64,000 bases of DNA from Bacteroidaceae bacterium (GTDB lineage: Bacteria > Bacteroidota > Bacteroidia > Bacteroidales > Barnesiellaceae_A): NCBI GenBank assembly GCA_017522135.1, contig JAFXAB010000029.1:3610-67609 (forward strand), written 5' to 3'. This document shows, one piece after another, positions 1 through 50,755 of the stretch. The notes under the pieces are model-generated. The model saw nothing but the letters and a program-made list of their open reading frames with translations. It did not search any database and was not told the DNA's origin. A program made the translations under genes and the position numbers. Each line of letters begins with the position of its first letter. Positions within the stretch are counted from its first letter, which is position 1.

Positions 1-774
1 CAGTCCGGTGCATTCACTGAAAGCATAACTTGGTATTGTCGTTACTTTATCGCCAATATTGATTGTGGAAAGATTGGAACATCTCATAAATACAGAATAA
101 GACAATGATGCTCCAGTTGTAATACAATTCTCTGCATTAAAGTTTACGGTAGTCAGTTTGGTGCAACTACCGAAAGCAGCCTTACCTATCGAAGTAACAC
201 TGTTAGGGATAGTAACAGATGTCAAGCCTTCGCAATAATAGAAAGCATGCTGACCTATCGAAGTGACACTATTTCCCATAATAACAGATGTCAATTTATT
301 GCAACTGCGAAATGCAAAATCACCTATCGAAGTTACACTGTTAGGGATAGTAACTGAAGTCAGTCCGGTGCAATCAGTGAAAGCACTATGACCTATCGAA
401 GTAACACTATTACCCAGCGTAATCGATGTCAATCCGGTGCAATTTTGGAAAGCATTCTGACCTATCGAAGTAACACTATTGGGGATAGTAATAGAAGTCA
501 ATCCGGTGTGATAACGGAAAGCATACTGACCTATCGAAGTGATGCTATAATCTACTTCTTCGTACGATACAGTTTCGGGTATTACTACCGAACCGCTGTA
601 TTTGTATTCTTCGGGTACATTATATTGATCCTCACCATAATAAGTTACCGCTACTTCATTCTCGGCTGTAATTTGATAATAAATACCATCGACCTCGAAG
701 TCGTGGGCCTGAATACCGATACTGCACAATAGGCATGCTATCGTAAGCAGTGATTTTAAGAGTTTTGTTTTCAT
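1..774 (-). CDS. BspA-type leucine-rich-repeat surface protein, N-terminal part (gene runs off the left edge)
   Basis: The reverse-strand ATG at 774-772 gives MKTKLLKSLLTIACLLCSIGIQAHDFEVDG, which matches 27/30 residues of the N-terminus of the 15232..19179 protein. The frame stays open where I translated it (1-120 gives NIGDKVTTIPSYAFSECTGL...) and has 23-aa/69-nt LRR periodicity. The + strand ORF 388..732 is its shadow. Confidence 0.8.
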   Translation of the reverse strand, partial: MKTKLLKSLLTIACLLCSIGIQAHDFEVDGIYYQITAENEVAVTYYGEDQYNVPEEYKYSGSVVIPETVSYEEVDYSITSIGQYAFRYHTGLTSITIPNSVTSIGQNAFQNCTGLTSITLGNSVTSIGHSAFTDCTGLTSVTIPNSVTSIGDFAFRSCNKLTSVIMGNSVTSIGQHAFYYCEGLTSVTIPNSVTSIGKAAFGSCTKLTTVNFNAENCITTGASLSYSVFMRCSNLSTINIGDKVTTIPSYAFSECTGL

Positions 775-1170
775 TTTTGTTGGGTTTATTAGGTTAGTAA
801 TAATTGTAAGCCTTAGGCTTGTCCTCCCAATCTCCCAACTTGGACGTGATTTTGTTTTTGCGCTCCGTTTCGCTGACAATAGGATATAAAAAAGGTGTGG
901 AGATTGCACCGTCTTATCCTCATATCAGGTCTTGGCGTACCTATGCAACAGACAAGACAACAGCCCCACACCGGTACAGCTATAACAAACTACTTGTATA
1001 GTAGTATTATAGACAATCGGTGTAGGTGCTACCGTCTATCATCTTCGTTGCATTACAAACCGCCAAGTTCGATATGAGAAGATAATATCAATAACACCTA
1101 ATTAAATAAAGCACAATGCAGGGACTGTCGCTACAATCCGTCGTAGCATTGAACTACAAAGTTATGAAAT
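775..1170 (-). promoter_or_regulatory. Promoter plus conserved long 5' leader of the BspA-like gene (copy A of a duplicated upstream region)
   Basis: A TAACTTTG (TAnnTTTG) -7 box lies on the minus strand at 1157-1164. An 87-nt block (1079-1165) differs at only 2 positions from 19495-19581. Further conserved blocks (821-845, 881-925, 955-973, 1017-1047) are separated by unrelated sequence. Confidence 0.55.
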
Positions 1171-1261
1171 AATTAATATGAAAAGCAAGAATGGTGTAAA
1201 AAATTCATGCAACTATATTTTTAGCAACCATGTGCGGACGTAATTTTATCGCATTTTTATT

Positions 1262-1980: not shown

Positions 1981-4092
1981 TTACTTTCTAACAATCATCT
2001 TCTTGCCACCTACAATGTAGAGACCGTTGCCAAGTACGTCAGCAGCGTTTACACCGGGTTTCAATGTTGTGATGTATTGACCCTTGAAGTTGTATACGTC
2101 GCGAGCTACGTTGTTGTTGGTAGTAATACCTTCTATACCGCTGGCAGCCTTAACGTTGAGTCTCGACCAGTTTGCATCTGATGTGAAGAGTTCTACTGCA
2201 TCATCGGGAACAATGAGAGTGATAACGCTCAAGTCGTTGATGTATTGGAATACATCCCAGAATACCGATGTGGTGAATTGAGGAACTTCACCCTCAAAGC
2301 GAGACCAGTCAATCAAACGGAGTGCTTGGTTGTCACCAAAGAAGAACTTGCCTATAACGAGAGATTTGGGCAAGATGATAGTCTCGATTGAAGTACAGCA
2401 GTCAAACATACTTTCCGATGAAGCGATTACCTCACACTTAGAGATATCGGCCGATTTCAACGATGCACAACCAAAGAAAGCATCTGTGAAGTTGGTCACG
2501 TTTACGCAACCTGTCAAGTCGATAGCTTCCAAGCTTGAGCAGTTTTGGAATGCCGAGCGGAGGCTTACGAAATTGGCGGCTTGGTCGGCAGCAGGCATTT
2601 TTACTGTCTTGATAGAGCGGCAACCTTGGAATACACCATTCATGCTGGTACCCAATTCTACATACATCGAGGTGTTTGCAGCAACAGTTATTTGGCTCAT
2701 ATCTACCTCTTCGATTGTTGTGTTACCTGCAGGGGGGAAACCGCTGTTATTACCAATAGTAGTGGTAAGTGTTTGGAAGTCTTCTGTGCCCCATTCGCCG
2801 GTCAAGATAAGTTTCTTGGCCGATGAAACTGCGGTAGGAATGTTTTCGGCATCAAATGTATATACACCCTCAGTCTCAACAACCTCAGTTGCAAGAATAG
2901 GAGTTGCGCTGAATGTCATTTGGTCGAGTTCTACAAGGTTACCCAATTGGCCACCACGGTTTTTACCCCATGCGTAGATGCGACCTTCTTCGGTGAGTAC
3001 GTTGCTGTAGCATTGACCCGAAGCAAGTTGAGTAATCTTAAGACCCGATTCGAGCTTAACCTCAACGGGGCTGTAAGATATAGGATTTTGAGCAAGGTCT
3101 ATCGATTTGCCTTTGCCATCACCGAGTGCACCATCGTTGTTTGAACCCCAAGCATATACCTTGTTGATAATACCATTTTCACCAACGGCTACGATGCGAG
3201 TTTGCTCACAACCGCTTATGCTTAAGATTTTGCCCTCAACAGCTGTTACTTGGCGAGGTGTGTAGATAGCTGTTGTGTCGTTGCTTTGGTAGCCAAACAA
3301 GAGGTCATCTTGGTTGTTACCCCATGCCCATAGAGTACCGTCTGACTTGAGAGCGTATGAGCTGTAACCTACAGCAAATGTCTTGACCCAATCTTTGGCC
3401 TCACCATATTGCTTGGGTGTCTTAACAAAGAAGCTGCCGGTGCCATCAGTCATGTCGGCGAGTTGGCCTCTTTCGTTCCAACCCCACATCCACAATGAGC
3501 CGTCTTCTTTGATACCCATACCGTGAGCAACACCTATAGTTACCGATGCCCAGTCGGTGTCAGTACCTACTTGTGTGGGAGTAGTTTTGTTGGCAAAACC
3601 GCCCAAACCGAGGGCACACATTTCGCCTTCACCCCAAGCCCACAATGTACCGTCGGTCTTTATAGCCATTGCGCTGAAACCGAAGAAACGTGTAGCTGTC
3701 ACGTATTTCCAATTGCTGTCTGTACCTACTTGTGTAAGGTCTTGGTGGTTTTGTCCGTCACCTACACCTTGTACACCCTTAGTATTCAATCCGGCAGCCC
3801 AAAGAGTACCATCTTCTTTGATAAAGAATGCGTATGAAGAACCGGCGGCTACATAAGTCCACTTCTCAGAGCTTATTTGTTGGGGATAGCCATAGCGTTC
3901 GTTCGAGCCTTTGCCAAGGCCGAGTTGACCGTATTCGTTCCAACCCCAGCCCCACAATGTGCCATCTTGGTCAATAGCATACGTACTTGCATCACCGGCT
4001 GCTACAAATTTCCATGTATGTTCGTAAGCCGATGCGCTCATGAACATTGACAATCCTATTAAGGCTGCCAATAAAGTAAAAATCTTCTTCAT
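1981..4092 (-). CDS. Secreted RCC1-repeat beta-propeller / BspA-type LRR fusion protein with T9SS C-terminal sorting domain
   Basis: 703 aa with signal peptide MKKIFTLLAALIGLSMFMSASA. About seven RCC1-type blades are visible (DGTLWGWGWNEYGQLGLG, DGTLWAWGEGEMCALGLG, KVYAWGSNNDGALGDG, GRIYAWGKNRGGQLGN). LRR_5-like repeats follow (FQGCRSIKTVKMP, FQNCSSLEAIDL, FFGCASLKSADIS). The CTD tail is ...VYNFKGQYITTLKPGVNAADVLGNGLYIVGGKKMIVRK. Confidence 0.85.
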   Translation of the reverse strand: MKKIFTLLAALIGLSMFMSASAYEHTWKFVAAGDASTYAIDQDGTLWGWGWNEYGQLGLGKGSNERYGYPQQISSEKWTYVAAGSSYAFFIKEDGTLWAAGLNTKGVQGVGDGQNHQDLTQVGTDSNWKYVTATRFFGFSAMAIKTDGTLWAWGEGEMCALGLGGFANKTTPTQVGTDTDWASVTIGVAHGMGIKEDGSLWMWGWNERGQLADMTDGTGSFFVKTPKQYGEAKDWVKTFAVGYSSYALKSDGTLWAWGNNQDDLLFGYQSNDTTAIYTPRQVTAVEGKILSISGCEQTRIVAVGENGIINKVYAWGSNNDGALGDGKGKSIDLAQNPISYSPVEVKLESGLKITQLASGQCYSNVLTEEGRIYAWGKNRGGQLGNLVELDQMTFSATPILATEVVETEGVYTFDAENIPTAVSSAKKLILTGEWGTEDFQTLTTTIGNNSGFPPAGNTTIEEVDMSQITVAANTSMYVELGTSMNGVFQGCRSIKTVKMPAADQAANFVSLRSAFQNCSSLEAIDLTGCVNVTNFTDAFFGCASLKSADISKCEVIASSESMFDCCTSIETIILPKSLVIGKFFFGDNQALRLIDWSRFEGEVPQFTTSVFWDVFQYINDLSVITLIVPDDAVELFTSDANWSRLNVKAASGIEGITTNNNVARDVYNFKGQYITTLKPGVNAADVLGNGLYIVGGKKMIVRK

Positions 4093-4121
4093 GTTTGTTC
4101 TTTTTTTAGATATAGATTATA

Positions 4122-5543
4122 TTATTTGATTATTTTCACAGCATTACCATTGCTTGCACGTACAACGTAAATACCATTGCCAAGTGATTGTGCGTCGATT
4201 ACTGTCTCGCCCTTGTTGGCTTGTGCGCTCATAACGAGCTTACCTGAGATGTCATATACACCTACAGTGCATGCCTCGGCACTCATCATAACGATGTTGC
4301 CATTGTATACGCCGGCATTGAATGAGGGTAATCTTAGGGCTTCTACACTGCCATCGAAAGGATTTTCGACACGTGTAAGACCCGATGAGATAACGGGGCA
4401 GATGGCAAAGCTACCATTTCCACCTCCATAGTTCGATATAGGACGGAAGTAATCTATTTCGCCATCAAATCTACCAAAAGAGTTGTGGGCCAACAGATTG
4501 TATTGTTGCTCGGTTGTCAATTCTGCTCCTTTGATGTCGGAGAGCAAGCAGAAGTCCTCTGTGTCGGGGTCTTGTGAGAAGCCTTCGATTGAGACAAAGA
4601 AGTAGGGCTTTCCATAGAGGTCGATGGGTACTTCAAACTCGATGTTGGCTACAGCACCGTCATATGTGAGTGCCCATGCACCATCTTCACCATCCGACTT
4701 GAAATCTTCAAAGGGTATCATTACACCCTCAAGAGGAATATATGTAAAGAGTACGCCTTCGTCTGTGATAGACGGCATCCATACTTGCATTCTTATTTGT
4801 GCACCCTCTTGATATTTGGTGGGTTTGTGGTGGAGGTAGATGTTTACACCATCGAGGTAGGCATCGTCTTGGGCTATCATAAAGAGGTTACCCCAACCTA
4901 CTACTTGTGTGTTGTTTGTACCACCTACATATCCTTTTGCATCACCTTCGTTGTATGTGTTGGCTCCAAACATGTATGTAGCTGTTTGATCCAAGCCACC
5001 GAAGCTGTCATGACGACGCATATCGATAGTGGTAATCTCTACGGTACCACCGGTTTTTATTTTTTCGTTACCTTCGCTCGATGTCATGCTCATGGCCGGA
5101 GTGTATGAGCTGTTTGAGCCGTCGGCATATGTTACGTCGAGAGTAGGCATGTCATAGAGACCCTCTTCGAGATAGTAAGCCTCAATGTTTTGTGTTGTTA
5201 AGTCGGCTGCTACAGCACCGGGTGTGAACCATTGCCATGCAGTAGGGTTGCCTGTCGACATATCGTTATACTTTACAGGTACACCGAGGGGTGCCCACAA
5301 AAATGCTCCATCGTTAATGGCTTTGTGACGAGCCAAAAGGTTACATACAGGCTTGTTTTCGGTCGATTTTGCACCAAGGTTGCGCAATACTTCGGGTGTT
5401 GCATACATGGCACTTGCTTCTGTATCTTGCTCCATGGCAGGGGTGTTGTGTTTTACCTTGCTGAGCAATACGCTTGTTTCTTGTGCCGATACCGAACTCA
5501 TTGCGAACAATGACAATAATGAGATGAGGTAAAATTTTTTCAT
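4122..5543 (-). CDS. Secreted protein of unknown function with T9SS C-terminal sorting domain
   Basis: 473 aa with signal peptide MKKFYLISLLSLFAMSSVSAQ and CTD tail VGVYDISGKLVMSAQANKGETVIDAQSLGNGIYVVRASNGNAVKIIK. It lies 29 nt upstream of the RCC1-LRR gene on the same strand, so the two are a likely operon. Confidence 0.8.
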   Translation of the reverse strand: MKKFYLISLLSLFAMSSVSAQETSVLLSKVKHNTPAMEQDTEASAMYATPEVLRNLGAKSTENKPVCNLLARHKAINDGAFLWAPLGVPVKYNDMSTGNPTAWQWFTPGAVAADLTTQNIEAYYLEEGLYDMPTLDVTYADGSNSSYTPAMSMTSSEGNEKIKTGGTVEITTIDMRRHDSFGGLDQTATYMFGANTYNEGDAKGYVGGTNNTQVVGWGNLFMIAQDDAYLDGVNIYLHHKPTKYQEGAQIRMQVWMPSITDEGVLFTYIPLEGVMIPFEDFKSDGEDGAWALTYDGAVANIEFEVPIDLYGKPYFFVSIEGFSQDPDTEDFCLLSDIKGAELTTEQQYNLLAHNSFGRFDGEIDYFRPISNYGGGNGSFAICPVISSGLTRVENPFDGSVEALRLPSFNAGVYNGNIVMMSAEACTVGVYDISGKLVMSAQANKGETVIDAQSLGNGIYVVRASNGNAVKIIK

Positions 5544-6494: not shown

Positions 6495-7457
6495 TTACTT
6501 TTCGATACCAAATTTCAGTCTTAATTGCTTGAGCATATCTACTGTCATACTGTCAAGGTCGTATTGGGGTTTCCAATCCCACTCCTCGCGAGCACATGTG
6601 TCATCGAGCGAGTTGGGCCATGAGTCGGCAATGGCTTGACGCAAGGGGTCGTGTTTATACTCCATCTTAAATCCGGGTACATACTCGCATATCTTCTTGT
6701 AGATAATTTCGGGGTCGAAACTCATCGACGTTACGTTGAACGAGTTGCGGTGGATGAGGCGGTCGGGGTTGGCCTCCATAATCTCAATAGCGGCGCGCAA
6801 CGCATCGGGCATATACATCATATCCATAAATGTGCCGGGGTTGAGGGGGCATTGGAATGTCTCTCCTTTTACGGCCGAGTAGTATATATCTACTGCATAG
6901 TCGGTTGTTCCTCCCCCCGGAGGTGTTACGTATGATATAAGACCCGGAAAACGAACTGAACGAGTGTCTACTCCAAATCGACGAGTGTAATAGTCCGAGA
7001 GCATTTCGCCTGTTACCTTGGTTACACCATATATCGTGTCGGGACGTTGTATGGTGTCTTGAGGTGTGCGATCCTTGGGTGTACCTTTACCAAATGAGCC
7101 TATCGAGCTGGGAGTAAACACAGCACAATTCTTTTCGCGTGCTACCTCAAGTGTGTTGAATAGGCCTCCTACGCCTATCTTCCATGCCAATTGGGGCTTG
7201 GCTTCGGCTGTTGCACTCAGCAGTGCCGCAAGGTTGTATATGGTGTCTACTTTATATTTGTCTACGGCATCGGCTATTTGTTGGGCATCAGTAATATCTA
7301 CTTCGGCCGATGGACCGCTTTCGGCCAAAACTCCTTTGGGTTCGGCCCCTTTGATATAACCGGCTACAACATTGCCTCCGGAATACTCCTGACGTAGTTT
7401 CAATGTGAGTTCCGAACCTATCTGACCCGTAGCTCCGATTATGAGAATGTTTTTCAT
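6495..7457 (-). CDS. tdh: L-threonine 3-dehydrogenase, SDR/NAD-dependent epimerase-type
   Basis: 320 aa with an N-terminal GATGQIGS Rossmann motif, a YGVTK catalytic Tyr-x3-Lys, and PPGGGTTDYA. It is transcribed divergently from kbl, which is the usual genomic partner. Confidence 0.8.
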   Translation of the reverse strand: MKNILIIGATGQIGSELTLKLRQEYSGGNVVAGYIKGAEPKGVLAESGPSAEVDITDAQQIADAVDKYKVDTIYNLAALLSATAEAKPQLAWKIGVGGLFNTLEVAREKNCAVFTPSSIGSFGKGTPKDRTPQDTIQRPDTIYGVTKVTGEMLSDYYTRRFGVDTRSVRFPGLISYVTPPGGGTTDYAVDIYYSAVKGETFQCPLNPGTFMDMMYMPDALRAAIEIMEANPDRLIHRNSFNVTSMSFDPEIIYKKICEYVPGFKMEYKHDPLRQAIADSWPNSLDDTCAREEWDWKPQYDLDSMTVDMLKQLRLKFGIEK

Positions 7458-10976: not shown

Positions 10977-11477
10977 TTAGTCGTTCATTGATAACAGAAA
11001 CTCTTCGTTTGAAGAAGTACGCTCAAGTCGCTCTTTGAGAAATTCCATCGCCTCTACCGAGTTCATATCGGCGAGATAGCGGCGCAGTATCCACATGCGG
11101 TTGAGTGTCTCTTTGTCGTGTAGGAGGTCGTCGCGGCGAGTACTTGAGGCGTTGATGTCTACTGCCGGGAAGATACGTTTGTTCGACAACTTGCGGTCGA
11201 GTTGCAACTCCATGTTACCTGTTCCCTTAAACTCTTCAAAGATTACTTCATCCATCTTTGAGCCTGTATCGATAAGGGCTGTGGCTATGATGGTGAGGCT
11301 GCCTCCGTTCTCGATATTGCGGGCTGCACCAAAGAAACGCTTGGGCTTGTGCAAGGCGTTGGCATCGACACCACCCGACAATACCTTGCCCGATGCCGGT
11401 GCTACAGTGTTAAAGGCTCGTGCCAATCGTGTGATAGAGTCGAGCAAGATAACTACGTCATGACCGCACTCTACCAT
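10977..11477 (-). CDS. rho: Transcription termination factor Rho, C-terminal fragment (gene interrupted by an in-frame TAA; possible pseudogene, readthrough or sequencing error)
   Basis: The 166-aa fragment [23 protein letters not shown]...[62 protein letters not shown] is the Walker-B to C-terminal part of Rho. It is in the same frame as 11490..13085 and is separated from it only by TAA plus 4 codons. Confidence 0.85.
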
Positions 11478-11489
11478 GCATTTGGCTTT

Positions 11490-13085
11490 TTAAAGTACGA
11501 TATTGGTTATCTTTACGTGGCGTTCGGCTGGTTCGTCAAAGGTAGAGGCTATAACCTCGGCCTTTACGCTGCGCGCCATGTCGGTTACCTCCTCGGGACG
11601 CTCGTCGATAAGTAGTATTATCATGTACACCTCGGGGTGATTTTCTGATATTGCATTGGCAATATCCTTGAGTATTACGGTTTTACCTGTCTTGGGTTGT
11701 GCCACTATCAGACCACGTTGTCCCTTGCCTATGGGCGAGAACATGTCTACTATGCGTGTCGAAAGGTTGCTCGGCTTGCCTCCGGTGAGATTGAATTTCT
11801 CTTGCGGAAACAAAGGGGTAAGGTGGTCGAATGGTACACGGTCGCGAACAAACTCCGGCAATCGACCATTGATGCGTTCTACCTTGGCCAGAGGGAAGTA
11901 TTTTTCTCCCTCTTTGGGCGGACGTATCGAACCCTCTACAACATCTCCGGTTTTCAGTCCGTAGTGCTTTATTTGTGATTGAGATACATATATGTCATCG
12001 GGCGATGTAAGGTAGTTATAGTCGGGCGAGCGAAGGAAACCATATCCGTCGGGCATCATTTCCAGTACACCCGAGCCCATCAGTATATCTTCAAAGTCAT
12101 ACAGACGCTCGCTCGGTATCATATCGTCGCGCAACGACTCTTCATGGCGCATCTCTTCTTGTGCCATGTTGCCGGCCGGCTTGTTGCGCTTGTTATTTTG
12201 TTTATTGTTGTTCTGCTTATTGTTGTAGTTATTGTTTCCACCGTTGTTGTCGCGATTTTGCGGCGTGAATTGTTGCTTGACAATATTGCCGTTCTTGTCG
12301 CGAGAGATAAAGCGAGTGGCTTTGGGGAAAAACGCCGACAAGCCCGGAGTGGGAGGGAGGGGTTGCTCCTGAGGAGTAGTTTCGTCCGATGCATTGTTTT
12401 CAGCCTCGGGGATGACCGGATCGGCTGGTGCGTTCTCTTGAGGCTCGGCTATAGTCTTCTCAACCTCTTTTTCGATTGTTGTATCTTCTTCTTTGATGGC
12501 AACTTTCTCTTCGCGAATTATACGTTTGCGACCGCGGCGAGGTTTCTCCACCTCAACATTGTTGGTTTCGGCCGGTGCAACCTCTTGGGGTTCTTCCTGT
12601 TTCGATTCTTGAGTTGTAGTTGTTGCTTCTTTAACCTCCTCGGTTGCAGGCTCTTCGACCTTTACTTTCTTCTTGCGACCGCGACGAGGTTTCTCTACGG
12701 GTGCTGCCTCTTCGGGGGTAGCCTCTGTTGCCGGAGTACTCTCTGATGCCGGAGTACTCTCTGATGCCTTCTCTTGGGGTGTATTATTTTTTTCTTCTAT
12801 AGCGTTGGGTTGTTCTTCTTTTACGGGTGCAACTTCGGGTTTTTGCACCTCTTTTGCTATCGAAGTTGTCGATTTTTCTTTTTCAACGGGGGTAGGTTGA
12901 GTTATTTTCTTCCTTTTCTTTCCTTCACCACCTTGTTTGCTGGCGCTGATGGCTTGCTCGTCGAGAATAGTATACACCAACTCGTCAATAGCAATATTGT
13001 TGCCGATATTGATACCCAATTGTGTAGCAATCTCTTTTAACTCCGGCAATGTTTTAGCCTCAAGGTCTTTCAAGTAATACATCAT
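11490..13085 (-). CDS. rho: Transcription termination factor Rho, N-terminal fragment (long disordered insertion, RNA-binding domain, Walker A), ending at an in-frame TAA
   Basis: The fragment contains ...[15 protein letters not shown]...[16 protein letters not shown] (CSD-like primary RNA-binding site) and [15 protein letters not shown] (P-loop). It stops at ...[11 protein letters not shown], where E. coli Rho continues ...[12 protein letters not shown]. The probable start is ATG 13085 ([20 protein letters not shown]); the ORF track extends to 13151. Confidence 0.85.
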
Positions 13086-13220
13086 AAATGAATTTTTAGG
13101 GGGCAATGACACACAATCTACTCTACGATTGTTGTTTTTATTGCCTATCAATTAACGGGGATTTCGTTTTTTTTGAGGTAAAGAGGACTCCGAGCGAGCA
13201 CCTCTTGGATTTTTCGTGTG

Positions 13221-13482: not shown

Positions 13483-15219
13483 TTACAAAGCCACTTTCAC
13501 CGCAGCATCGGCCACTTTCACCACATACACGGCATCGGTGGGCATGGCTATGCGCATGGTGTCGCTTGTGGCATAGATGGTGCGCAGCAATACGCCGTCT
13601 ACATCATATATGGCTATGCTCTCGCCACGCTCGCAACCGGCCACTACCACATCACCACGATGGCCGTAGGCCTTGATGCGACTGTTGTGCATAGGTGCAT
13701 TCTCTGCGGTTGGTATCTCAAAGCTTATGTTGATAACAGAATTTTCATTAAGTTTAGGGGTGATATAGACGCCTCCAACCAATTCATTTGTTACATCCTC
13801 ACCATTGAAAAGCACAGTGTTCAGCATATAGTAAACATCAGTAGGACTTACTTTTATCATCTGCTCAACACCTTTAGGCAAGTACAATGTCAGGTTGTTG
13901 TAATACGAATCTTGAATCATCAATTCAACGGTATTGCTCAACACGGTTACTACACAACTACTATTTACTAAGTTGTGCTCTGTGCCATTGGTATCTGCAA
14001 AGACAATGTTTTGCAATTGGATTGTATGTGTACCTGCAAAATCATCCGACGTATTGACGTATATATATACCAGCTCGCCTTCATATCCGACAAAAGCTTT
14101 ATTGTTTGACGATGCCGACAACTTTACGATGCCGTCACCTTGTGTCGTTGCGGTATAGGTGTGCATGTTATTGCGTGAAGTGCCCACCATGTAGTCTATT
14201 GCAGTCATTCCCTCGGGCAATATCAGGTCGGCTGTAAACCCTGTAAATTGTACGAGGTTATCGAGGCTTATTCCTATTTGATATTCCGATACTCCGGCTT
14301 CTATCTCAAAGTCTTCGATGTAAAAACGATTGGTAGGTGGTGCGGCAACGGTTACCACACACTCTTCATCCTCAAGGGGTACATTACTACCATCCTGTTG
14401 GGCAAATGCAGTGTTAGCAACTCTTATCGACAATGTATTACCTTGTTCAAGGCTCTTATCGGCTGTTACATCAAATGTCAACAACGCACCATCACTACCC
14501 TCAAAGAGTGATGAGGTCATCGATATACACACGATGCGCAGTGCGCCGTCGCTTTGTATTTTCGACATGATTGTTTGGTCGGTGGCACGAGCGGTAAGTG
14601 TCCAATTGGCGGCTGTAATACCTTCGGGCAAATAAATATCACTTTGAAAACCGGTGTACGCCTTTTTATTATCGAGTATAACACTCACACTTTGGGTTTC
14701 GCCGGGAGCCAACTCAAAATCTTCGATGTAGAAACGGTCGGCCGGTGGGGCTACTATTGTAGTTGTATTTTCTTCATCTTCAAAGTTGACAAAGGCACCG
14801 TTTGACTTGGCAAAAGCAGTGTTGGCTACAGTTATAGTGTGCGTTGTGCCTACTCTCAATCTGTCTGATGCTGTAACATCAAACGTCAACAATGCACCTT
14901 CATTACCCTCAAAGAGTGATGAGGTCATTGATATGCACACGATGCGCAATGCGCCATCTTCTTGTACTCTCGACGAGAATGACTGGTCGCTGGCACGGTC
15001 GGTAAGACTCCAATTATCGGCAGTGAGTCCGTCGGGCATTAGTATATCGCACTGAAAGCCGGTATATGACGAATTGTTGACAAGCATAACACTCACGCTC
15101 TTTGTTTCACCGGGCATTATTTCAAAGTCCTCTACGTAGAAACGATCAGTCGCAGTTGCCGATATTGCAGCAGTGGCAATTGCCACCACTGCAAGTAGGT
15201 TTTTAATTATATTTTTCAT
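13483..15219 (-). CDS. Secreted protein with three tandem cohesin-like modules, an Ig-like domain and a T9SS C-terminal sorting domain (scaffoldin-like)
   Basis: 578 aa with signal peptide MKNIIKNLLAVVAIATAAISATA. Three ~130-aa modules begin DRFYVEDFEIMPGETKSVSV..., DRFYIEDFELAPGETQSVSV..., NRFYIEDFEIEAGVSEYQIG..., with a cohesin-like pattern (YTGFQCDILMPDGL..., GALLTFDVTA...). The CTD tail is IAIYDVDGVLLRTIYATSDTMRIAMPTDAVYVVKVADAAVKVAL. Confidence 0.8.
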   Translation of the reverse strand: MKNIIKNLLAVVAIATAAISATATDRFYVEDFEIMPGETKSVSVMLVNNSSYTGFQCDILMPDGLTADNWSLTDRASDQSFSSRVQEDGALRIVCISMTSSLFEGNEGALLTFDVTASDRLRVGTTHTITVANTAFAKSNGAFVNFEDEENTTTIVAPPADRFYIEDFELAPGETQSVSVILDNKKAYTGFQSDIYLPEGITAANWTLTARATDQTIMSKIQSDGALRIVCISMTSSLFEGSDGALLTFDVTADKSLEQGNTLSIRVANTAFAQQDGSNVPLEDEECVVTVAAPPTNRFYIEDFEIEAGVSEYQIGISLDNLVQFTGFTADLILPEGMTAIDYMVGTSRNNMHTYTATTQGDGIVKLSASSNNKAFVGYEGELVYIYVNTSDDFAGTHTIQLQNIVFADTNGTEHNLVNSSCVVTVLSNTVELMIQDSYYNNLTLYLPKGVEQMIKVSPTDVYYMLNTVLFNGEDVTNELVGGVYITPKLNENSVINISFEIPTAENAPMHNSRIKAYGHRGDVVVAGCERGESIAIYDVDGVLLRTIYATSDTMRIAMPTDAVYVVKVADAAVKVAL

Positions 15220-15231
15220 CTCAATACGCTT

Positions 15232-18200
15232 TTATTTGATTACAACTTTGTGAGCAGTATCACCTATTACAACGATATATACACCTTGTTGCAGCATCGA
15301 TATCTCATTGCGACCGGCTTGCAACTCTACGCTTCGTGTTACACCGCTGGTGGTAGTTATATATGCAACTCGATTGCAAGTCGATTCCACAACAATTGCA
15401 TCACCTGCACTATATACTCTATCTATGGTATATATACGTTTTACATCGGTTGTATTATTTACGTTGCATGAAGAATTGTCAAGGTTGTGAATGGTGATAT
15501 TGCGTGTTGCAAACACAGCATTGTTTATCTCCACAACTCCGTTTTTAAATTTATTTTCGGCTACAACATCTATTGCAAGCAATACCCCGGTATTGTCAGC
15601 TATGGCTGCATTGTCGATAGCAAATGCTGCAATGCGCAACGAACCATCGGCTTGCTCTTTCCACATTACATGGTGGGTCGATGCGAGTCTGTTGCCGAGT
15701 GTTACACCTTGTGCTTTAAGACCTGCGGGCAATATTACATTCATTTGGAACGAAGTATACGGCATATTGTTGTCGAGTACAATTTCTATAGGAGTATTCT
15801 CATCACCACCTACAACGATATCCGATACTTGCAACTTACCCTTATTGCCTTGATAATAGGCAGGAGCCGAAGTACCCTCGTCGCCTAAGATAGTATTGAC
15901 AATACCTACAACGTCGCCCACGTTTATTATACCATCATTGTTCATGTCGGCATTATCCACGCGTTTCATGCCCTCTGTTTCACCCAGTATATAGTTCATG
16001 GTCACAACAGCATCGCTGATATTTACCAACTTGTCATCATTGGCATCACCGGCCAATATATAGTCGGGTTCTTCTTCGCCACTTTCATTGACAAACGATA
16101 CTTTCAGTACAGCGTTCTCGTTTACAGCATCGGTTGTAAATACACCATTTACTACTTGGTTTGTTACATCTTCTTCGCCGTAGTGCACACTACCTATGCT
16201 ATAACCCTCACGAGGCTCTATAAGGAATGTTACAACAGAGTCGGTGGGTACTCGCAAGCTCAGTCCGTCGCCAATGGTAGCATCTATACCGCTTATCTCT
16301 ACAATCTCTTCGTTTTCGGCTGCAGCATAGCGACGTGGTGCGTGATGTTTACCATGATGCTTGTGCCAGTCGCGGTCATACCAGATATGACCGCCGCGAT
16401 GATGTCTCTTGCATCCATGGCCTTCTTTGCAATCGTTACAATCGGCATCTTCCACCTCTACATCAATACTCTTGCGTGTCTCTATAAAGGCACCCCAGTG
16501 AGCCGATATGAGATAATCTACGTGCGATGCTGTAGGATATGAAAGCAAACAATTGTAGTTATCTACATTACTAAAGATTTTATCTCCCGCCTCGGGGGGG
16601 GTGGTTGCATATACCGATATATTGGCAAGCTTTTTACAGTTGGCAAAAGCCGATGAGCCTACCGCTTGCAAAGATGCCGGTAGGTTGAGGGTGGTGATAT
16701 TGCTGCATGACTCAAAGGCACTACTACCAATTGTAGTTAGTTTCTCGCAACCCGACAAGTCTACAAGTGTCATATTCTTACACCCGCTGAATGCCCTATA
16801 TCCTATTGTTTCTATGGTAACTGGGAATGATACATTGCTCAATTGAGCACAATCAGCGAATGTATAACTACCTATCGTTGTCAAGTTCTCAGGTAGTGTA
16901 ATAGACTTTATCTTCTTACAATTACTAAAAGCCGATTGACCTATCGATCCCACACTATTAGGCAATACAACGTCTTGCGCCATATTGCAATCCATGAAGG
17001 CCTCATATCCTATGGACACGAGTCCATCGGGAAATGCAATGCTGTCGCTCAACAATACACAACCGGCAAAAGCTCTATCGCCTATCACCTTACATTGTGT
17101 AGGCAGTACAACACTTTTCAGAGCTCTTTTATTACTGAATGCATCGGTGGGTATTTCATCACATTCGGCATCGCTGAGGTCTATCGAGTAGCACGATGTC
17201 ATGTTGTTTCTCATTACCGAGAAGTCGGTAAGGTTTATTTTGCCATGCACCTTCAGTATAGTAACATTCTTAAGTGCAATACCCTGATTGTCAACATCTA
17301 CAGCCAGGTATCCGGGTTTCGACACGGTTACCTCTACGGCATTGGCCGGATTGATGTCGATAATGTTGTATTCACTCCAATACTCGGCTGCTCGATAAGC
17401 AGCACCACAACCCGAGGGCACGAATATGCACACATCCTCACCAAAGTCGGCACCCGGAAGTTTAGGCGGTACAGTTGCAAGGCATTCAATACTCAATATC
17501 GGACATTGCAAGAAGGTGTTGTTGCCTATCTCGGCAACACTACTGCCGATGGTAACCTTTTGCAATTGATAGCAACACTGAAACACACTTTCTCCTATCG
17601 AAGTGACACTGTTTCCTATAGCAACTTCTGTTAAGCCGGTGCAATCTGAGAAAGCGTGATTACCTATCGAGGTAACACCCTCAGGTATACTAACACTTGT
17701 CAACCCGGTGCAATTATAAAAAGCTTGATCACCTATCGATGTAACACTATTGGGGATAGAAACAGAAGTCAATCCGGTGCAATTATTAAAAGCGTTATCA
17801 CCTATCGAAGTGACACTGTTTCCTATAGCAACTTCTGTTAAGCTGGTGCAAGATAAGAAAGCTCCACTACCTATCGAGGTAACACCCTCAGGTATACTAA
17901 CACTTGTCAACCCGGTGCAATTATCAAAAGCGTATTCACCTATCGAGGTAACACCCTCAGGTATACTAACACTTGTCAACTCGGTGCAATTTGAGAAAGC
18001 ACTACTACCTATCGAGGTAACACCCTCAGATATACTAACACTTGTCAATCCGGTGCAATTTGAGAAAGCGTAATCACCTATCGAAGTTACGCTGTTAGGG
18101 ATAGAAACAGAATTGATACTTTCGCAATTTTTGAATGCATTTTTAGCTATTGATGTAATACTGTCGGGAATAATTAAGTTTATAACCAACTCGTTATTTA

Positions 18201-19179
18201 AATAGAGATTAACCGATGTTGCGCGAGGAAGTTCTGACCATATATCGTTGCAAATAGTAGCTATATTATCTACATAAATATTGCTTATTTTACCATCTGG
18301 AAAAGCGTAATCACCTATCGATGTAACACTATTGGGGATGGTAATTTCAGTCAGTCCTGAGCAACCTTCAAAAGCACAACTCCCTATCGAAGTTACGCTG
18401 TTAGGGATATTGACAGAAGTCAGTCCTGAGCAACTACGGAAAGCACTACTACCTATCGATGTAACACTATTGGGGATGGTAATTTCAGTCAGTCCTGAGC
18501 AACTACGGAAAGCACTACTACCTATCGATGTAACACTATTGGGGATGGTAATTTCAGTCAGTCCTGAGCAACCATAGAAAGCAGACTCACCTATCGATGT
18601 AACACTATTGGGGATAGAAACAGAAGTCAACCCGGTGCAATTATAAAAAGCTTCATAAGCTATCGTGGTAACACCCTCTGGTATACTAACACTTGTCAAT
18701 CCGGTGCAATTATAAAAAGCGTAATTACCTATCCAAGTGACACTGTTTCCTATAGCAACTTCTGTTAAGCCGATACAACCATCAAAAGCTCTATTACCTA
18801 TCGTTAATACACTATTGGGGATAGTGACCGATGTCAACCCGGTGCAATTATAAAAAGCGTAATCACCTATCGATGTAACACCCTCAGGTATACTAACACT
18901 TGTCAACCCGGTGCAATTATAAAAAGCTTGATAACCTATCGAAGTGACACTATAAGTAACTCCTTCATAAGTAACACTCTCAGGTATTACAACCGAACCA
19001 GTGTACATATTTTTTGCGGGCACATTAGAATAATCCTCACCATAATAAATTACTGCAACTCTATTTTTGGCTGTAATTTGATAATAAATACCATCGACTT
19101 CGAAGTCGTGGGCATAGACACCGATACTGCACAACAGGCATGCTATTGCAAGCAGTGATTTTAATAATTTCGTTTTCAT
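15232..19179 (-). CDS. Giant BspA-type LRR surface protein with His-rich segment, dockerin-like module, cohesin-like module and T9SS C-terminal sorting domain
   Basis: 1315 aa with a signal peptide and more than 20 23-aa LRRs (IPNSVTSIGSSAFRSCSGLTEIT...). The His/Cys-rich stretch is CKEGHGCKRHHRGGHIWYDRDWHKHHGKHH. The dockerin-like duplicated Ca-loop/helix is GDANDDKLVNISDAVVTMNYILG...ADMNNDGIINVGDVVGIVNTILG. The cohesin-like module is LQVSDIVVGGDENTPIEIVLDNNMPYTSFQMNVILPAGL.... The CTD tail is ...GVYIVVIGDTAHKVVIK. The stop codon is 12 nt upstream of the next gene. Confidence 0.85.
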   Translation of the reverse strand: MKTKLLKSLLAIACLLCSIGVYAHDFEVDGIYYQITAKNRVAVIYYGEDYSNVPAKNMYTGSVVIPESVTYEGVTYSVTSIGYQAFYNCTGLTSVSIPEGVTSIGDYAFYNCTGLTSVTIPNSVLTIGNRAFDGCIGLTEVAIGNSVTWIGNYAFYNCTGLTSVSIPEGVTTIAYEAFYNCTGLTSVSIPNSVTSIGESAFYGCSGLTEITIPNSVTSIGSSAFRSCSGLTEITIPNSVTSIGSSAFRSCSGLTSVNIPNSVTSIGSCAFEGCSGLTEITIPNSVTSIGDYAFPDGKISNIYVDNIATICNDIWSELPRATSVNLYLNNELVINLIIPDSITSIAKNAFKNCESINSVSIPNSVTSIGDYAFSNCTGLTSVSISEGVTSIGSSAFSNCTELTSVSIPEGVTSIGEYAFDNCTGLTSVSIPEGVTSIGSGAFLSCTSLTEVAIGNSVTSIGDNAFNNCTGLTSVSIPNSVTSIGDQAFYNCTGLTSVSIPEGVTSIGNHAFSDCTGLTEVAIGNSVTSIGESVFQCCYQLQKVTIGSSVAEIGNNTFLQCPILSIECLATVPPKLPGADFGEDVCIFVPSGCGAAYRAAEYWSEYNIIDINPANAVEVTVSKPGYLAVDVDNQGIALKNVTILKVHGKINLTDFSVMRNNMTSCYSIDLSDAECDEIPTDAFSNKRALKSVVLPTQCKVIGDRAFAGCVLLSDSIAFPDGLVSIGYEAFMDCNMAQDVVLPNSVGSIGQSAFSNCKKIKSITLPENLTTIGSYTFADCAQLSNVSFPVTIETIGYRAFSGCKNMTLVDLSGCEKLTTIGSSAFESCSNITTLNLPASLQAVGSSAFANCKKLANISVYATTPPEAGDKIFSNVDNYNCLLSYPTASHVDYLISAHWGAFIETRKSIDVEVEDADCNDCKEGHGCKRHHRGGHIWYDRDWHKHHGKHHAPRRYAAAENEEIVEISGIDATIGDGLSLRVPTDSVVTFLIEPREGYSIGSVHYGEEDVTNQVVNGVFTTDAVNENAVLKVSFVNESGEEEPDYILAGDANDDKLVNISDAVVTMNYILGETEGMKRVDNADMNNDGIINVGDVVGIVNTILGDEGTSAPAYYQGNKGKLQVSDIVVGGDENTPIEIVLDNNMPYTSFQMNVILPAGLKAQGVTLGNRLASTHHVMWKEQADGSLRIAAFAIDNAAIADNTGVLLAIDVVAENKFKNGVVEINNAVFATRNITIHNLDNSSCNVNNTTDVKRIYTIDRVYSAGDAIVVESTCNRVAYITTTSGVTRSVELQAGRNEISMLQQGVYIVVIGDTAHKVVIK
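17547..19002 (-). repeat. In-frame 69-bp tandem repeat array encoding the LRRs
   Basis: The 69-nt period is visible throughout. Units 18421-18489 and 18490-18558 are identical at every base, and neighbouring units (18352-18420, 18559-18627) are diverged copies. Confidence 0.85.
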
Positions 19180-19585
19180 CTTTATTGGGTATTAGAGTGT
19201 TTAACAATTGCAATGTTTCTTGTGTCCTCCCAATCTCCCAACTTGGACAATTGTTATATATAATGTATATGTCGCTCGGTTTTGCTTGCGACAGGATATA
19301 AAAAAAGGTGTGGAGATTGCACTGTCTCATCTCATTCTCAGGTTTTGGCGAACCCCTATATTAGATAAGACAACAGCCCCACACCGCACTGCTATATAAG
19401 GTTATCGGTATGATAACAACAGTATATTGCCTCGGTGCAGGTGCTATCGTCTATCATCTTCAATATAGATTCAAATCGCCAAATTTGAGAATGGAAGATA
19501 ATATCAATAACACCTAATTTAATAAAGCGCAATGCAGGGACTGTCGCTACAATCCGTCGTAGCATTGAACTACAAAGTTATAAAA
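19180..19585 (-). promoter_or_regulatory. Promoter plus conserved long 5' leader of the giant LRR gene (copy B of the duplicated upstream region)
   Basis: A TAACTTTG box lies on the minus strand at 19573-19580. It shows the same pattern of conserved blocks and variable spacers as 775-1170, including the 87-nt block 19495-19581. Confidence 0.55.
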
Positions 19586-19689
19586 TATATAATAAGAAAA
19601 CCCAAAAAAGTGCAAAAAAATAGATTTACACGTGCTATTGACGTGTTATTGCAAGAATCGCAATACACCTCGTGTGAGGTGGAGGGTGG

Positions 19690-21015
19690 TTATTTCAACC
19701 GTTTCAGTTCTATAATCTGTGATGTATGCTTGGTTATGCGGGCATCGTTGCAGGGGCGTTGGCCTACAATCCACAAGATTTTCTCGCTATCGCACAACAG
19801 TAGGGCTTGCTCTTTCTCTATGAGCGAGTATTTGTGGTCGTTGAAGTAGTCGCTTACTTTCTTGCGACCTTGCATGCCGAAGGGTACAAATGTGTCGCCT
19901 TGTCGCCAGTGGCGCAGTATGAGCGGAAATTTTACTTTGTCGAGGTCAAAGCATGCTGTGTTGCTGTTACGGGCTATTGCATAACCCTCGGCAGGGTGGT
20001 ACGATAGGGTGATGTTGTACTGTGTGTGGCTTTCGCCTTCGCGCCATGTGGCGAGGACCTCTCCTACGGTTGGCTTTGTTGCAGGTGTAATGACAAGCTC
20101 GTCGCGATGGCTTATGATGCGATGGGTGGGTGATATGAATTGTCGGCCCGAGGGGATGCCTGCTGTTGCCATGGCCTCAATCTGTGTGGCATTGAAACCC
20201 AATGGCGATACTATCTCAAACAGCAATGTGGCAGGGGCGGGGGAGGTGTGTAGTTGTGATAGGTCGATGTGTATGTTGTCGCCTTCTTGTCGGCAAGTAC
20301 GATGTTTCCACTCCTCGATACATGTGCGGTAGAATTTTTCGCTGCCACGCAGATAGCCGATAGTACGCTCCATGCAATTGTCAAACGAAGGATTTACTTC
20401 TCGCAACATGGGTATGACCTCAAGACGCAGTTTGTTGCGTGTATAGATGGCCTCCAAATTGGTGCTGTCGGTTACATAATCGAGCTGTTCTTGTGTGAGG
20501 TATTCGACTATCTCATCGCGCGATGCACACAGCAGAGGGCGCACGATGTTACCATTACGGGGTTGCATGCCTGTTAGTCCTGCAAGGCCTGTGCCACGTG
20601 TGAGGTTGAGCAATACGGTCTCGGCGTTGTCGTCGCGATGGTGTGCCACAGCTATGGCTTGAGCATGGTGCTCGATGCGCATCTGCTCGAGCCATGTGTA
20701 GCGCAGTTCGCGTGCCGCCATTTCAATCGATATGCCATGCTCTTGGGCATAAGTCGTTGTGTCGAAGGTTGTTTCGATAAATGTCGATTGTAGCTTTTGG
20801 GCTGTTTGCTTTGCGTGGTTGCGGTCGCGCACACTCTCCTCGCCACGTAGCATGAAGTTGCAATGACACGCTATACAATCATAGCCCAGCTGCGATAGAA
20901 TGGCCAGCAGAGCCACCGAATCGGCGCCTCCGCTAAGCCCTACCACGACACGACAGCCCGGCACGAGCAACCGCTCTCGTGCGATGTAGGATTCTATGCG
21001 ACTTGCCAACTTCAT
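19690..21015 (-). CDS. tilS: tRNA(Ile)-lysidine synthetase
   Basis: 441 aa with the N-terminal PP-loop VVVGLSGGADSVAL and TilS-type central and C-terminal domains. Confidence 0.9.
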   Translation of the reverse strand: MKLASRIESYIARERLLVPGCRVVVGLSGGADSVALLAILSQLGYDCIACHCNFMLRGEESVRDRNHAKQTAQKLQSTFIETTFDTTTYAQEHGISIEMAARELRYTWLEQMRIEHHAQAIAVAHHRDDNAETVLLNLTRGTGLAGLTGMQPRNGNIVRPLLCASRDEIVEYLTQEQLDYVTDSTNLEAIYTRNKLRLEVIPMLREVNPSFDNCMERTIGYLRGSEKFYRTCIEEWKHRTCRQEGDNIHIDLSQLHTSPAPATLLFEIVSPLGFNATQIEAMATAGIPSGRQFISPTHRIISHRDELVITPATKPTVGEVLATWREGESHTQYNITLSYHPAEGYAIARNSNTACFDLDKVKFPLILRHWRQGDTFVPFGMQGRKKVSDYFNDHKYSLIEKEQALLLCDSEKILWIVGQRPCNDARITKHTSQIIELKRLK

Positions 21016-50301: not shown

Positions 50302-50555
50302 TATAGAGAACACCGAGGTATAGTTGTCATATATCTCGGTTTCTTTCTTTTGTGCCGGTATCTATACAATCTCTACTTTGTGTTTGTTGCAGAACCGTGC
50401 AATATATACGCAATATGTAAGCGAAATGATTGAATATGTTAAATAAATAAAAAACAGTGGATATTTATGATGCTTTAAAACATGTTTTTCGTTCCTTATT
50501 GCTAATTTTGCCGAGTGTTTTTCATAGTATTAGATTAAGATTAAGGTTAACGAAG

Positions 50556-50587
50556 ATTGGTTGTCGGGAGGCAATCAATTTTTTTAT
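50556..50587 (+). terminator. Orphan intrinsic terminator in the clpB-dxr intergenic region
   Basis: The stem is ATTGGTTG (50556-50563) / CAATCAAT (50572-50579) with one G-U pair and loop TCGGGAGG, followed by T7 (50580-50586). It lies ~45 nt downstream of a TAATTTTG box at 50503-50510. Confidence 0.55.
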
Positions 50588-50755
50588 ACCCACATCATCC
50601 CTCTGTTTCATGTAGCTAATATCCAATCGGGTAGATTTTTAGTGCCAATTTAAAAACTTTTTTAAAAGTTGCCTTTACGGCAGGTTTCTTTATGGTCATC
50701 CCGAAAATTTTGCGTACATTTGTAGTTTGTAACAAATAAGCACTTTCATAACGAC

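Follow-up and report, generated by a model that had tools for sequence, protein, structure and literature searches.

A conserved leader RNA with two predicted alternative folds upstream of surface-protein genes in gut Bacteroidales

Two BspA-like leucine-rich repeat (LRR) genes in a 64,000-nt stretch of a Bacteroidaceae bacterium genome (GenBank assembly GCA_017522135.1, contig JAFXAB010000029.1, positions 3,610 to 67,609; the whole stretch is called the window below) are each preceded by a long leader, copies A and B, with a conserved RNA core of about 215 nt. From the sequences of these leaders and their relatives we propose, with a probability of roughly 0.6, that the leader is a large co-transcriptional terminator/antiterminator switch that gates read-through into surface-protein genes. 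The original prediction, made from the window alone, had described a structured leader shared by the two BspA-like genes; absent from it were three points developed here, namely that the element is not specific to BspA genes, that its core ends in a terminator-like stem followed by a U-tract, and that two folds of the core are conserved.

The core folds as a long rod

Eleven cores were aligned with MAFFT (alignment A2). The RNAalifold consensus is a single long irregular hairpin, hereafter the rod or fold R, with helices P1–P7 and 70 pairs, 25 of which show compensatory changes. Standard pairs occupy 93% of its cells, compared with 36–48% when the partners are slid by 1–3 columns, and none of 500 shuffles reached the observed values. 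A covariance model (CM) alignment of 15 sequences, which was fitted to the model and thus leans towards the rod structure, has double changes at 48 of the 70 rod pairs. Window copies A and B by themselves differ at 21 of the 70 pairs (11 double compensatory, 8 one-sided through wobble pairing, 2 broken). Within the rod, P6 is a near-continuous duplex of about 20 bp; P1b (UAUUG/CAAU) was rejected as a firm helix, because its pairs do not covary and fail to hold in divergent members.

The signal is strand-specific because of conserved G.U pairs, with scores of 165–222 bits on the sense strand vs. 12–29 bits on the antisense strand. No open reading frame (ORF) is conserved across the family on either strand, which excludes an overlapping gene as the cause of the conservation. 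That the leader core is a sense-strand RNA structure is near certain. The earlier view of a structured cis-regulatory leader under selection, as opposed to a simple duplication, is supported by this abundance of covariation. It had also depicted conserved blocks separated by unalignable spacers; the blocks are real, while the spacers of the core turned out to be related, as they form the arms of covarying helices P3, P5, and P7. Positions of the core in the window, all on the minus strand, are as follows.

19439-19515 (-): 5′ half of the core (segments 1 and 2), copy A; hairpin H1 of the alternative fold, or rod 5′ strands P1–P6
19477-19483 (-): H1 loop/P4 strand UUUGGCG, copy A
1024-1099 (-): 5′ half of the core, copy B; H1 or rod 5′ strands
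19387-19432 (-): apical hairpin (P7/H2), copy A; variable in sequence, covarying, common to both folds
974-1017 (-): apical hairpin, copy B
19307-19385 (-): 3′ half of the core (segments 3 and 4), copy A; putative terminator hairpin H3, or rod 3′ strands
894-972 (-): 3′ half of the core, copy B; H3 or rod 3′ strands
19300-19306 (-): U-tract of 7 U, copy A, directly after the last helix
888-893 (-): U-tract of 6 U, copy B

An alternative three-hairpin fold with coupled covariation

When the pairing AUCUUC:GAAGAU was forced, one common alternative fold was obtained in every sequence, consisting of H1, the apical hairpin, and H3 (fold H). In H1 the 5′ half of the core pairs with itself through AGGUGUUAUUG/CRAUAGCACCU and AUCUUC/GAAGAU, with a small hairpin whose loop is UUGGCG. 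The 3′ half does the same in H3, through GGUGUGGGG/CUCCACACC, GUCUUAUC/GAUAAGAC (GUCUUAUC/GAUGAGAC in copy A), and a small hairpin AGGU/ACCU with loop CGCCAAG. Two of the complementarities listed in the original prediction belong here and not in the rod: the ATCTTC/GAAGAT type is the H1 helix, and GGTGTGG/CCACACC is the base of H3.

On A2, 93.4% of the fold H cells are paired, compared with 39–50% after sliding. Covarying pairs that lie outside the rod are 28:65 and 29:64 (UC/GA changed to CA/UG in members L012 and L013), 40:47, and 178:211. Columns 28, 29, 47, and 65 are unpaired in the rod, and in 10 of the 11 sequences column 40 can pair with column 47 as in H and with column 199 as in the rod. 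When the halves are folded separately, a long hairpin results from each of them in all 15 members, among them four divergent ones found via their proteins with no RNA seed, and the z scores range from -2.6 to -6.9 in 14 of the 15; both folds are present in 15 of 15.

Changes in the strand that precedes the U-tract are matched by changes in both partner strands. The strands concerned read GGUGU / GGUGUGG / CCACACC in the main family, GGACGU / GGCGUGGG / CCCACGUC in L027, AGCGU / GCGUGG / CCACGC in L022 and L021, and AAGUG / GUGUGGG / CCGCAC in L026. Conservation is highest in the columns that pair in both folds (0.84, vs. 0.68 for rod-only columns, with seed columns excluded), and, one A apart, every invariant column belongs to the U-tract or to a helix of one of the two folds. 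The difference between dual and single pairing constraint accounts for the block pattern, in that the blocks are doubly constrained strands and the spacers are singly constrained helices or linkers. We consider it likely that the core has two conserved, mutually exclusive folds.

Terminator features and folding energetics

The base of H3 consists of nine mostly G-C pairs with six or seven U directly after it in the 11 close members (a single C interrupts the run in L012). Divergent members have stems equivalent to the H3 base followed by U-rich runs, which are interrupted in three of them (UUUCUUU, UUUCUGU). On structural grounds, H3 with its U-tract thus has the predicted form of an intrinsic (Rho-independent) terminator. 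A simple terminator scanner misses H3 because its loop is long, and a small local terminator next to the U-tract was not borne out in the terminator scan.

Over the last 10 nt, the 11 close members have -14 to -17 kcal/mol in H3 vs. -4.5 to -6 kcal/mol in the rod, where this part is P1a (6 bp); the four divergent members show little or no difference between the two. The complete rod is the global minimum, 2–17 kcal/mol below the three hairpins. During simulated growth of the chain, H1 is complete by about nt 90 and remains the minimum free energy structure until about nt 140–150, after which rod pairs take over. The 6 nt between H1 and the apical hairpin, GCACCG, remain unpaired and are the complement of the bases with which segment 3 begins. 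Barriers were estimated with the findpath heuristic and are hence upper bounds: 0–4 kcal/mol for invading H1, and 33–48 kcal/mol between the finished folds.

Pairing with a loop beyond the U-tract

Located 20–60 nt after the U-tract, usually in a hairpin loop, is an 8-nt stretch that is the perfect complement of the strand just 5′ of P1a. The pairing is CAAUCUCC:GGAGAUUG in the window copies, L003–L005, and L010; CAAUCCUC:GAGGAUUG in L009 and L011; CAUCCCUC:GAGGGAUG in L007; CGAUCCUC:GGGGAUCG in L013; and UUCUCCC:GGGAGAA in L027, which makes five covarying versions across the family. In 11 of 16 members the member's own downstream region beats approximately 93–100% of its shuffles. The complementarity CAATCTCC/GGAGATTG, previously seen in the window alone, is this covarying long-range pairing. 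The core strand concerned lies in an internal loop and a non-covarying 4-bp helix of the rod, and inside the H3 stem in fold H; the downstream contact is thus compatible with the rod and competes with H3. The window positions are given below.

19312-19319 (-): strand CAAUCUCC, copy A, complement of the downstream loop
899-906 (-): strand CAAUCUCC, copy B
19224-19248 (-): downstream element, copy A; hairpin GUCC...GGAC, with GGAGAUUG in its loop at 19231-19238
821-845 (-): downstream element hairpin, copy B, with GGAGAUUG at 828-835

A proposed switch and its difficulties

The switch that we propose builds on what was observed of both folds, their conservation and covariation, and the U-tract. 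Each leader would be transcribed from its own promoter, and the core would act as four segments arranged around the apical hairpin. Fold H would combine pairings 1:2 (H1) and 3:4 (H3, the terminator), and fold R pairings 2:3 and 1:4, giving a rod that would sequester the 5′ arm of the terminator and leave the weak 6-bp P1a beside the U-tract. H1 would form first. On the default path, nascent segment 3 would bind the toehold GCACCG and displace H1 by branch migration, so that the rod forms and transcription reads through. If H1 were stabilized or the toehold blocked, for which a protein or elongation speed are candidates, segment 3 would stay free, H3 would form, and transcription would stop. 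The choice between R and H would be irreversible once made. After read-through, the downstream 8-nt loop would pair with the CAAUCUCC strand that H3 needs; that this locks the read-through conformer is a guess. Which fold reads through, the order of events, and the existence of an effector are the parts that we infer.

The mutually exclusive, conserved pairings 1:2, 2:3, and 3:4 expected of an attenuator are all found, with three-way covariation. As to the sensor of an attenuator, neither a translated leader peptide nor a known site for an RNA-binding protein was found. A leader peptide was rejected as a candidate because no reading frame is conserved; in L005, a stop comes after the AUG that the window copies carry in the 5′-terminal hairpin (P0).

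Several points weigh against the proposed switch. Fold H was derived from the same sequences on which it was evaluated, which inflates its slide control, and the search that brought in 7 of the 11 close members used a 19-nt seed from within segment 3. The pairing potential of H follows in part from the resemblance of the two halves, which is itself required by dual pairing. The rod, too, ends in a covarying helix flush with the U-tract (P1a, AGGUGU/ACACCU), so both folds may terminate, the rod less well; the only ground for equating the rod with read-through is a base weaker by about 10 kcal/mol. No effector was identified, no leader peptide is conserved across the family on either strand, and the invariant columns contain no conserved unpaired pocket. 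The downstream complementarity is weak in L008, L012, L018, L021, and L026, and since the loop is transcribed after the terminator it can have no influence on the termination decision and would act only on read-through transcripts. Finally, the next ORF of at least 60 amino acids (aa) after the core of L013 is trigger factor, 485 nt away.

Family members and downstream genes

Fourteen copies were found beyond the two in the window (16 in total), in ruminant Bacteroidaceae metagenome-assembled genomes (MAGs) and in gut Muribaculaceae contigs. The common core measures 195–266 nt across the family and 211–234 nt in the close family, about 215 nt being typical. With a 20-nt pattern from the 5′ hairpin, another three leaders were retrieved from two ruminant “Bacteroidaceae bacterium” MAGs, each of them in front of an LRR gene; MAG RGIG7723 has two copies of the leader RNA. 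The first pattern used on metagenomes, CCAAGTTGGGAGATTGGGAGG, had zero matches. The 19-nt central pattern GGTGTGGGGCTGTTGTCTT returned seven metagenome contigs with a 211–234-nt core and one chance match; exact-protein look-up placed three of these seven contigs in Muribaculaceae (Muribaculum, Paramuribaculum, and Muribaculaceae). By the same kind of evidence, the TilS protein of the window is identical to that of a “Bacteroidaceae bacterium” MAG. Divergent members were found upstream of LRR_5 genes reached via protein look-ups, and score as follows with R1, a CM of the core: L027 80 bits, L022 and L023 55, L026 and L021 33, and L018 16. A protein search with the N-terminal 120 aa yielded mainly small LRR_5 proteins.

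In the seven metagenome contigs found with the central pattern, the genes behind the core are of non-LRR type, encode signal peptides or lipoboxes, and have no homology to one another. The ORFs after the core in L007, L010, L011, and L012 encode non-LRR signal-peptide proteins or lipoproteins, with DUF5036, a weak DUF7387 match, or no family. Several LRR_5 genes have short leaders without the element (look-ups including P0012, P0118, and P0024). With the core before non-LRR genes and some LRR_5 genes lacking it, the BspA-specific framing of the original prediction does not hold. All 16 copies have the same orientation, and in every one but L013 approximately 10–120 nt separate the end of the core from the point where the next ORF (at least 60 aa) begins. 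A TAnnTTTG box lies 13–96 nt upstream of the core in each of the 15 members for which upstream sequence is available, and no second such promoter was seen by eye in the spacers between core and gene; the downstream gene therefore needs read-through.

The R1 search of the window with filters off found no third copy, so that 64 kb contain only two. Scans of viral contigs gave chance matches only, and a CM search of the loci that they returned (3, then 82) gave one short match at chance level (16 bits). BLASTN of the core against plasmid and phage collections gave no match. The comparison with Rfam suggested in the original prediction was carried out and returned no family: none of the 4227 models of Rfam 15 matched the leader at E ≤ 10 in window positions 19100–19700, L011 positions 6600–7100 had chance-level matches only (≤14 bits), and there was no gathering-level match at the motif in the window or in 10 loci. 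No description of the element was found in literature on Bacteroides leaders and antitermination, Term-seq, FopS, and Muribaculaceae, including Weinberg 2010/2017, Narunsky 2024, and Fremin & Bhatt 2021 with part of the latter's candidate catalogue. The leader RNA belongs to no catalogued family.

Two further observations concern individual loci. A mini-variant leader of about 180 nt stands before LRR genes at L018 3-185 (+) and L135 ~290-590 (+). It has a long-range helix CCGCCAA/UUGGCGG, then CCGCC and a U-tract, and its GGCGG strand could pair either way; R1 barely detects the L018 example, at 16 bits, and misses that of L135 (the locus of P0059). A Bacteroidales small signal recognition particle (SRP) RNA is encoded at L009 638-745 (-), about 200 nt ahead of the core and in the same direction, which is probably a coincidence.

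Layout of the two window leaders

The Bacteroidetes -7 promoter consensus is TAnnTTTG. A box of this type, TAACTTTG, lies 393 nt before the ATG start codon in copy A (ATG at 19179) and 382 nt before it in copy B (ATG at 774), in agreement with the distance of about 385 nt first reported. Alignment of the two copies likewise reproduced the two differing positions in the promoter-adjacent block. Blocks of 38 nt and 25 nt each occur exactly twice in the window and had no matches in 100 dinucleotide shuffles, and the two leaders have much lower folding energies than their dinucleotide shuffles (z = -6.1 and -5.0). Because tilS has its own terminator-like hairpin before the -7 box, leader A looks like a transcription unit of its own, apart from the upstream tilS.

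At the predicted 5′ end is the two-tier hairpin P0, which in copy A has an outer stem CAAUGC/GCAUUG (the CAATGC/GCATTG complementarity noted previously), an inner stem GGAUUGU/ACAGUCC, and the loop AGCG. Most relatives have a comparable 5′ hairpin, with loop AGAG or AGCG in several. In several members P0 is followed by a U-rich run (U8 in L005, whose P0 is at 932-985 on the plus strand, and U6 in L011). P0 may thus be not just a 5′ cap structure but a first, weaker site of termination or pausing.

19180-19580 (-): whole leader, copy A, from the -7 box to the last base before the ATG of a BspA-like LRR gene of 1315 aa
775-1164 (-): whole leader, copy B, before a BspA-like gene (start at 774) that extends beyond the window edge
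15232-19179 (-): BspA-like LRR gene A, 1315 aa, with six LRR_5 stretches
<1-774 (-): BspA-like LRR gene B, start at 774, incomplete in the window
19573-19580 (-): putative Bacteroidetes-type -7 box TAACTTTG, copy A
1157-1164 (-): putative Bacteroidetes-type -7 box TAACTTTG, copy B
19628-19646 (-): terminator-like hairpin and T-run after tilS, upstream of the leader promoter
19530-19567 (-): P0 5′ hairpin, two-tier, copy A
1114-1151 (-): P0 5′ hairpin, copy B

A same-strand gene whose product ends in DUF6383 follows the BspA-like gene both in the window (13483-15219, -) and in L005 (5624-6988, +), which suggests that the two genes form a surface-protein unit read from one leader. The region upstream of copy B is rich in secreted proteins: at 1981-5543 (-) are genes for an RCC1-repeat protein with an LRR_5 stretch (703 aa) and for a protein with a type IX secretion system (T9SS) C-terminal sorting domain (473 aa), both without the leader.

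Recombination and other observations

Window positions 450-1200 (-) and L003 900-1640 (-), from a water deer MAG, share approximately 99% identity over a stretch that begins about 30 nt before the -7 box and takes in the leader and the first 32 codons; beyond GATGGTATTTATTAT (DGIYY), identity drops abruptly to about 45%. Such a drop implies that a cassette of promoter, leader, and signal peptide has been joined to different LRR gene bodies, and the boundary looks like a recombination breakpoint.

Small LRR_5 ORFs (170–186 aa) with a kindred N-terminus occur in L017, L019, L020, L027, L132, L135–L137, and L139, repeatedly followed by genes for an HTH_17 protein (about 320 aa) and a tyrosine integrase (Phage_int_SAM_5/Phage_integrase). 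Among these small proteins, one 90% cluster has versions of 170, 182, and 518 aa. Possible readings of this combination of small LRR_5, HTH_17, and integrase genes are a system in which a recombinase varies LRR surface proteins, or a mobile element for such proteins.

Elsewhere in the window, the rho gene (10977-13151, -) has an in-frame TAA at 11490-11492 (…NIVL*KAKCMVE…), leaving same-frame ORFs of 553 aa and 166 aa. The TAA falls at what we take to be a conserved Glu of the Rho consensus, and could be an assembly error, a pseudogene, or recoding. The only Rfam match in the window is a small RNA of the FopS family (RF04319) at 50515-50588 (+), with 68.8 bits vs. a gathering threshold of 56.

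Alternative explanations

The best surviving alternative, which we nevertheless regard as unlikely, is a small RNA, stand-alone or dual-function, that comprises P0 and the core (about 280 nt). Its transcription would always stop at the U-tract, and it would refold into the stable rod and act in trans, e.g., as a decoy for a protein that binds dsRNA or RNA; its location ahead of surface-protein genes would then be secondary. Every member shows a promoter of its own together with a strong terminator-like end, the rod, lowest in energy overall, lies behind a barrier of 33–48 kcal/mol, the element is multi-copy (two in the window, two in MAG RGIG7723), and no ORF of at least 60 aa lies close behind the core of L013. 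A trans-acting RNA would not be expected to keep the same orientation in 16 of 16 copies, with the core approximately 10–120 nt before the next ORF in all but L013. It is also at odds with the spacers, in which no TAnnTTTG was seen by eye, so that the gene needs read-through, and with the locus-specific covariation of the downstream loop with the core, which places read-through transcripts under selection. A discrete RNA of about 280 nt could still be an additional product of the leader.

Somewhat less probable again is an mRNA 5′ stabilizer or RNase III processing element without regulated termination. The rod and P0 would then shield the long mRNA against decay that starts at its 5′ end, or RNase III would cleave them to yield the mature mRNA. 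The 5′-terminal P0 hairpin in most members, the P6 duplex of about 20 bp in the rod, and the long (4 kb) surface-protein genes behind the leader would all suit such a role, which nonetheless leaves unexplained why each half folds on itself, why six or seven U abut the 3′ hairpin, and why the strand before the U-tract covaries with two partners.

We think it very improbable that the leader is a metabolite or ion riboswitch whose aptamer is the rod-specific internal loop GUUUGAA/AGGUA between P4 and P5. Such a riboswitch could well be a leader of this size, conserved and bistable, whose expression platform is a terminator, but the helices of one fold or the other account for the invariant positions, the “loops” of the rod are stems in H, the downstream genes encode non-homologous surface proteins with no common metabolic theme, and no Rfam riboswitch matched at E ≤ 10. 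Two specific identities were also rejected: a cobalamin riboswitch, suggested by GCCAAGACCUGA, which is superficially B12-box-like, has no Rfam match and no GGGAA/GCAAC core; and a 6S-like or SRP-like RNA does not fit a multi-copy element in cis without model matches.

That the leader is a long quasi-palindrome, that a sharp recombination boundary lies a little way into the coding region, and that tyrosine integrase genes adjoin many related small LRR genes could also point to an element that works as DNA, such as an inverted repeat resembling a miniature inverted-repeat transposable element, a cruciform, or the recombinase site of an LRR-shuffling system. This hardly seems credible: on the opposite strand, many conserved G.U pairs would turn into A-C mismatches (hence the antisense scores of 12–29 bits vs. 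165–222 bits sense), orientation relative to promoter and gene is constant, 64 kb searched with filters off hold two copies, phage, plasmid, and viral collections have no matches, and the recombination boundary lies outside the element, about 100 nt downstream of the ATG. The idea of a functionless trace of recent duplication or gene conversion between paralogous 5′ ends, which could draw on the ~99% identity of leader and first 32 codons between copy B and a different MAG with differing gene bodies (hence a 5′ cassette exchanged by recombination), can practically be set aside, as 19 of the 21 differing rod pairs (of 70) keep pairing between the window copies and the architecture is retained in Muribaculaceae before unrelated genes and in sequence-divergent members.

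Comparison with known regulatory RNAs

Classical attenuators include the E. coli trp leader, with its pairings 1:2, 2:3, and 3:4, and the B. subtilis pyr leaders, with a PyrR-stabilized anti-antiterminator. They resemble the proposed terminator/antiterminator switch in having an exclusive upstream hairpin (1:2), an antiterminator (2:3), and a terminator (3:4) with a U-tract, with a decision made during transcription. The leader RNA is larger (~215 vs. ~100 nt), and differs in its conserved fourth pairing (1:4), which completes a rod ending at the U-tract; in the complementarity of its two hairpin loops (P4, possibly a kissing contact); in its extra covarying pairing with a loop beyond the terminator; and in having no leader peptide, PyrR, TRAP, or other known binding motif. 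Riboswitch expression platforms are likewise cis leaders in which alternative folds decide on an intrinsic terminator, whereas the leader RNA has no conserved unpaired pocket, no association with metabolic genes, and no Rfam match.

“Coupled covariations” and metastable hairpins were reportedly described by Gultyaev, Franch and Gerdes in 1997 for hok-family mRNAs of type I toxin-antitoxin systems. Common to both are a strand that covaries with two partners and a metastable 5′ hairpin that forms first and later gives way to long-range 5′-3′ pairing. Unlike in the leader RNA, which surrounds a putative terminator before secreted-protein genes and has no toxin or antisense RNA, refolding in hok controls translation of the toxin mRNA and antisense binding.

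Bacteroides UpxY proteins, which are NusG paralogs, act at capsule operon leaders (PMC11685472), and LoaP leader hairpins are a case of leader-dependent antitermination (PMC12691694). Together with EAR and put, these systems share with the leader RNA long 5′ leaders with terminators before cell-surface operons, and they make Bacteroides leaders known control points. They differ in needing an operon-encoded NusG paralog or an RNA that modifies RNA polymerase; no such gene lies beside the leaders described here, and no sequence or Rfam similarity between these systems and the leader RNA was found. The Rfam motifs of Bacteroidetes (Bacteroidales-1, Bacteroides-1, Bacteroid-trp, and BTnc small RNAs such as FopS) have the phylum in common with it, and again no model in the 4227-model set matches the leader at E ≤ 10.

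Significance

Gut Bacteroidales subject their surface proteins to intensive variation and regulation. To our knowledge, little is known of how they do so, apart from invertible promoters and the UpxY/UpxZ capsule system, and Muribaculaceae are almost unstudied at the RNA level. As a more tentative extension of the proposed switch, one on which we would not bet even money, the leaders may represent a new class of large effector-responsive switch confined to gut Bacteroidales (Muribaculaceae and ruminant Bacteroidaceae). Here a 70-bp rod and a three-hairpin terminator would compete by toehold strand displacement, a protein or elongation kinetics would set the outcome, and a regulon of unrelated, recombination-shuffled surface proteins would be coordinated.

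As a four-segment RNA with all four pairwise combinations conserved, the leader offers a clean natural case for the study of co-transcriptional folding and strand displacement. An entry in an RNA family database could annotate many “empty” intergenic regions. For the bacteria themselves, the leader RNA would be a ready-made control element, placed in front of genes for adhesin-like (BspA/LRR) proteins and for lipoproteins in no fewer than two families.

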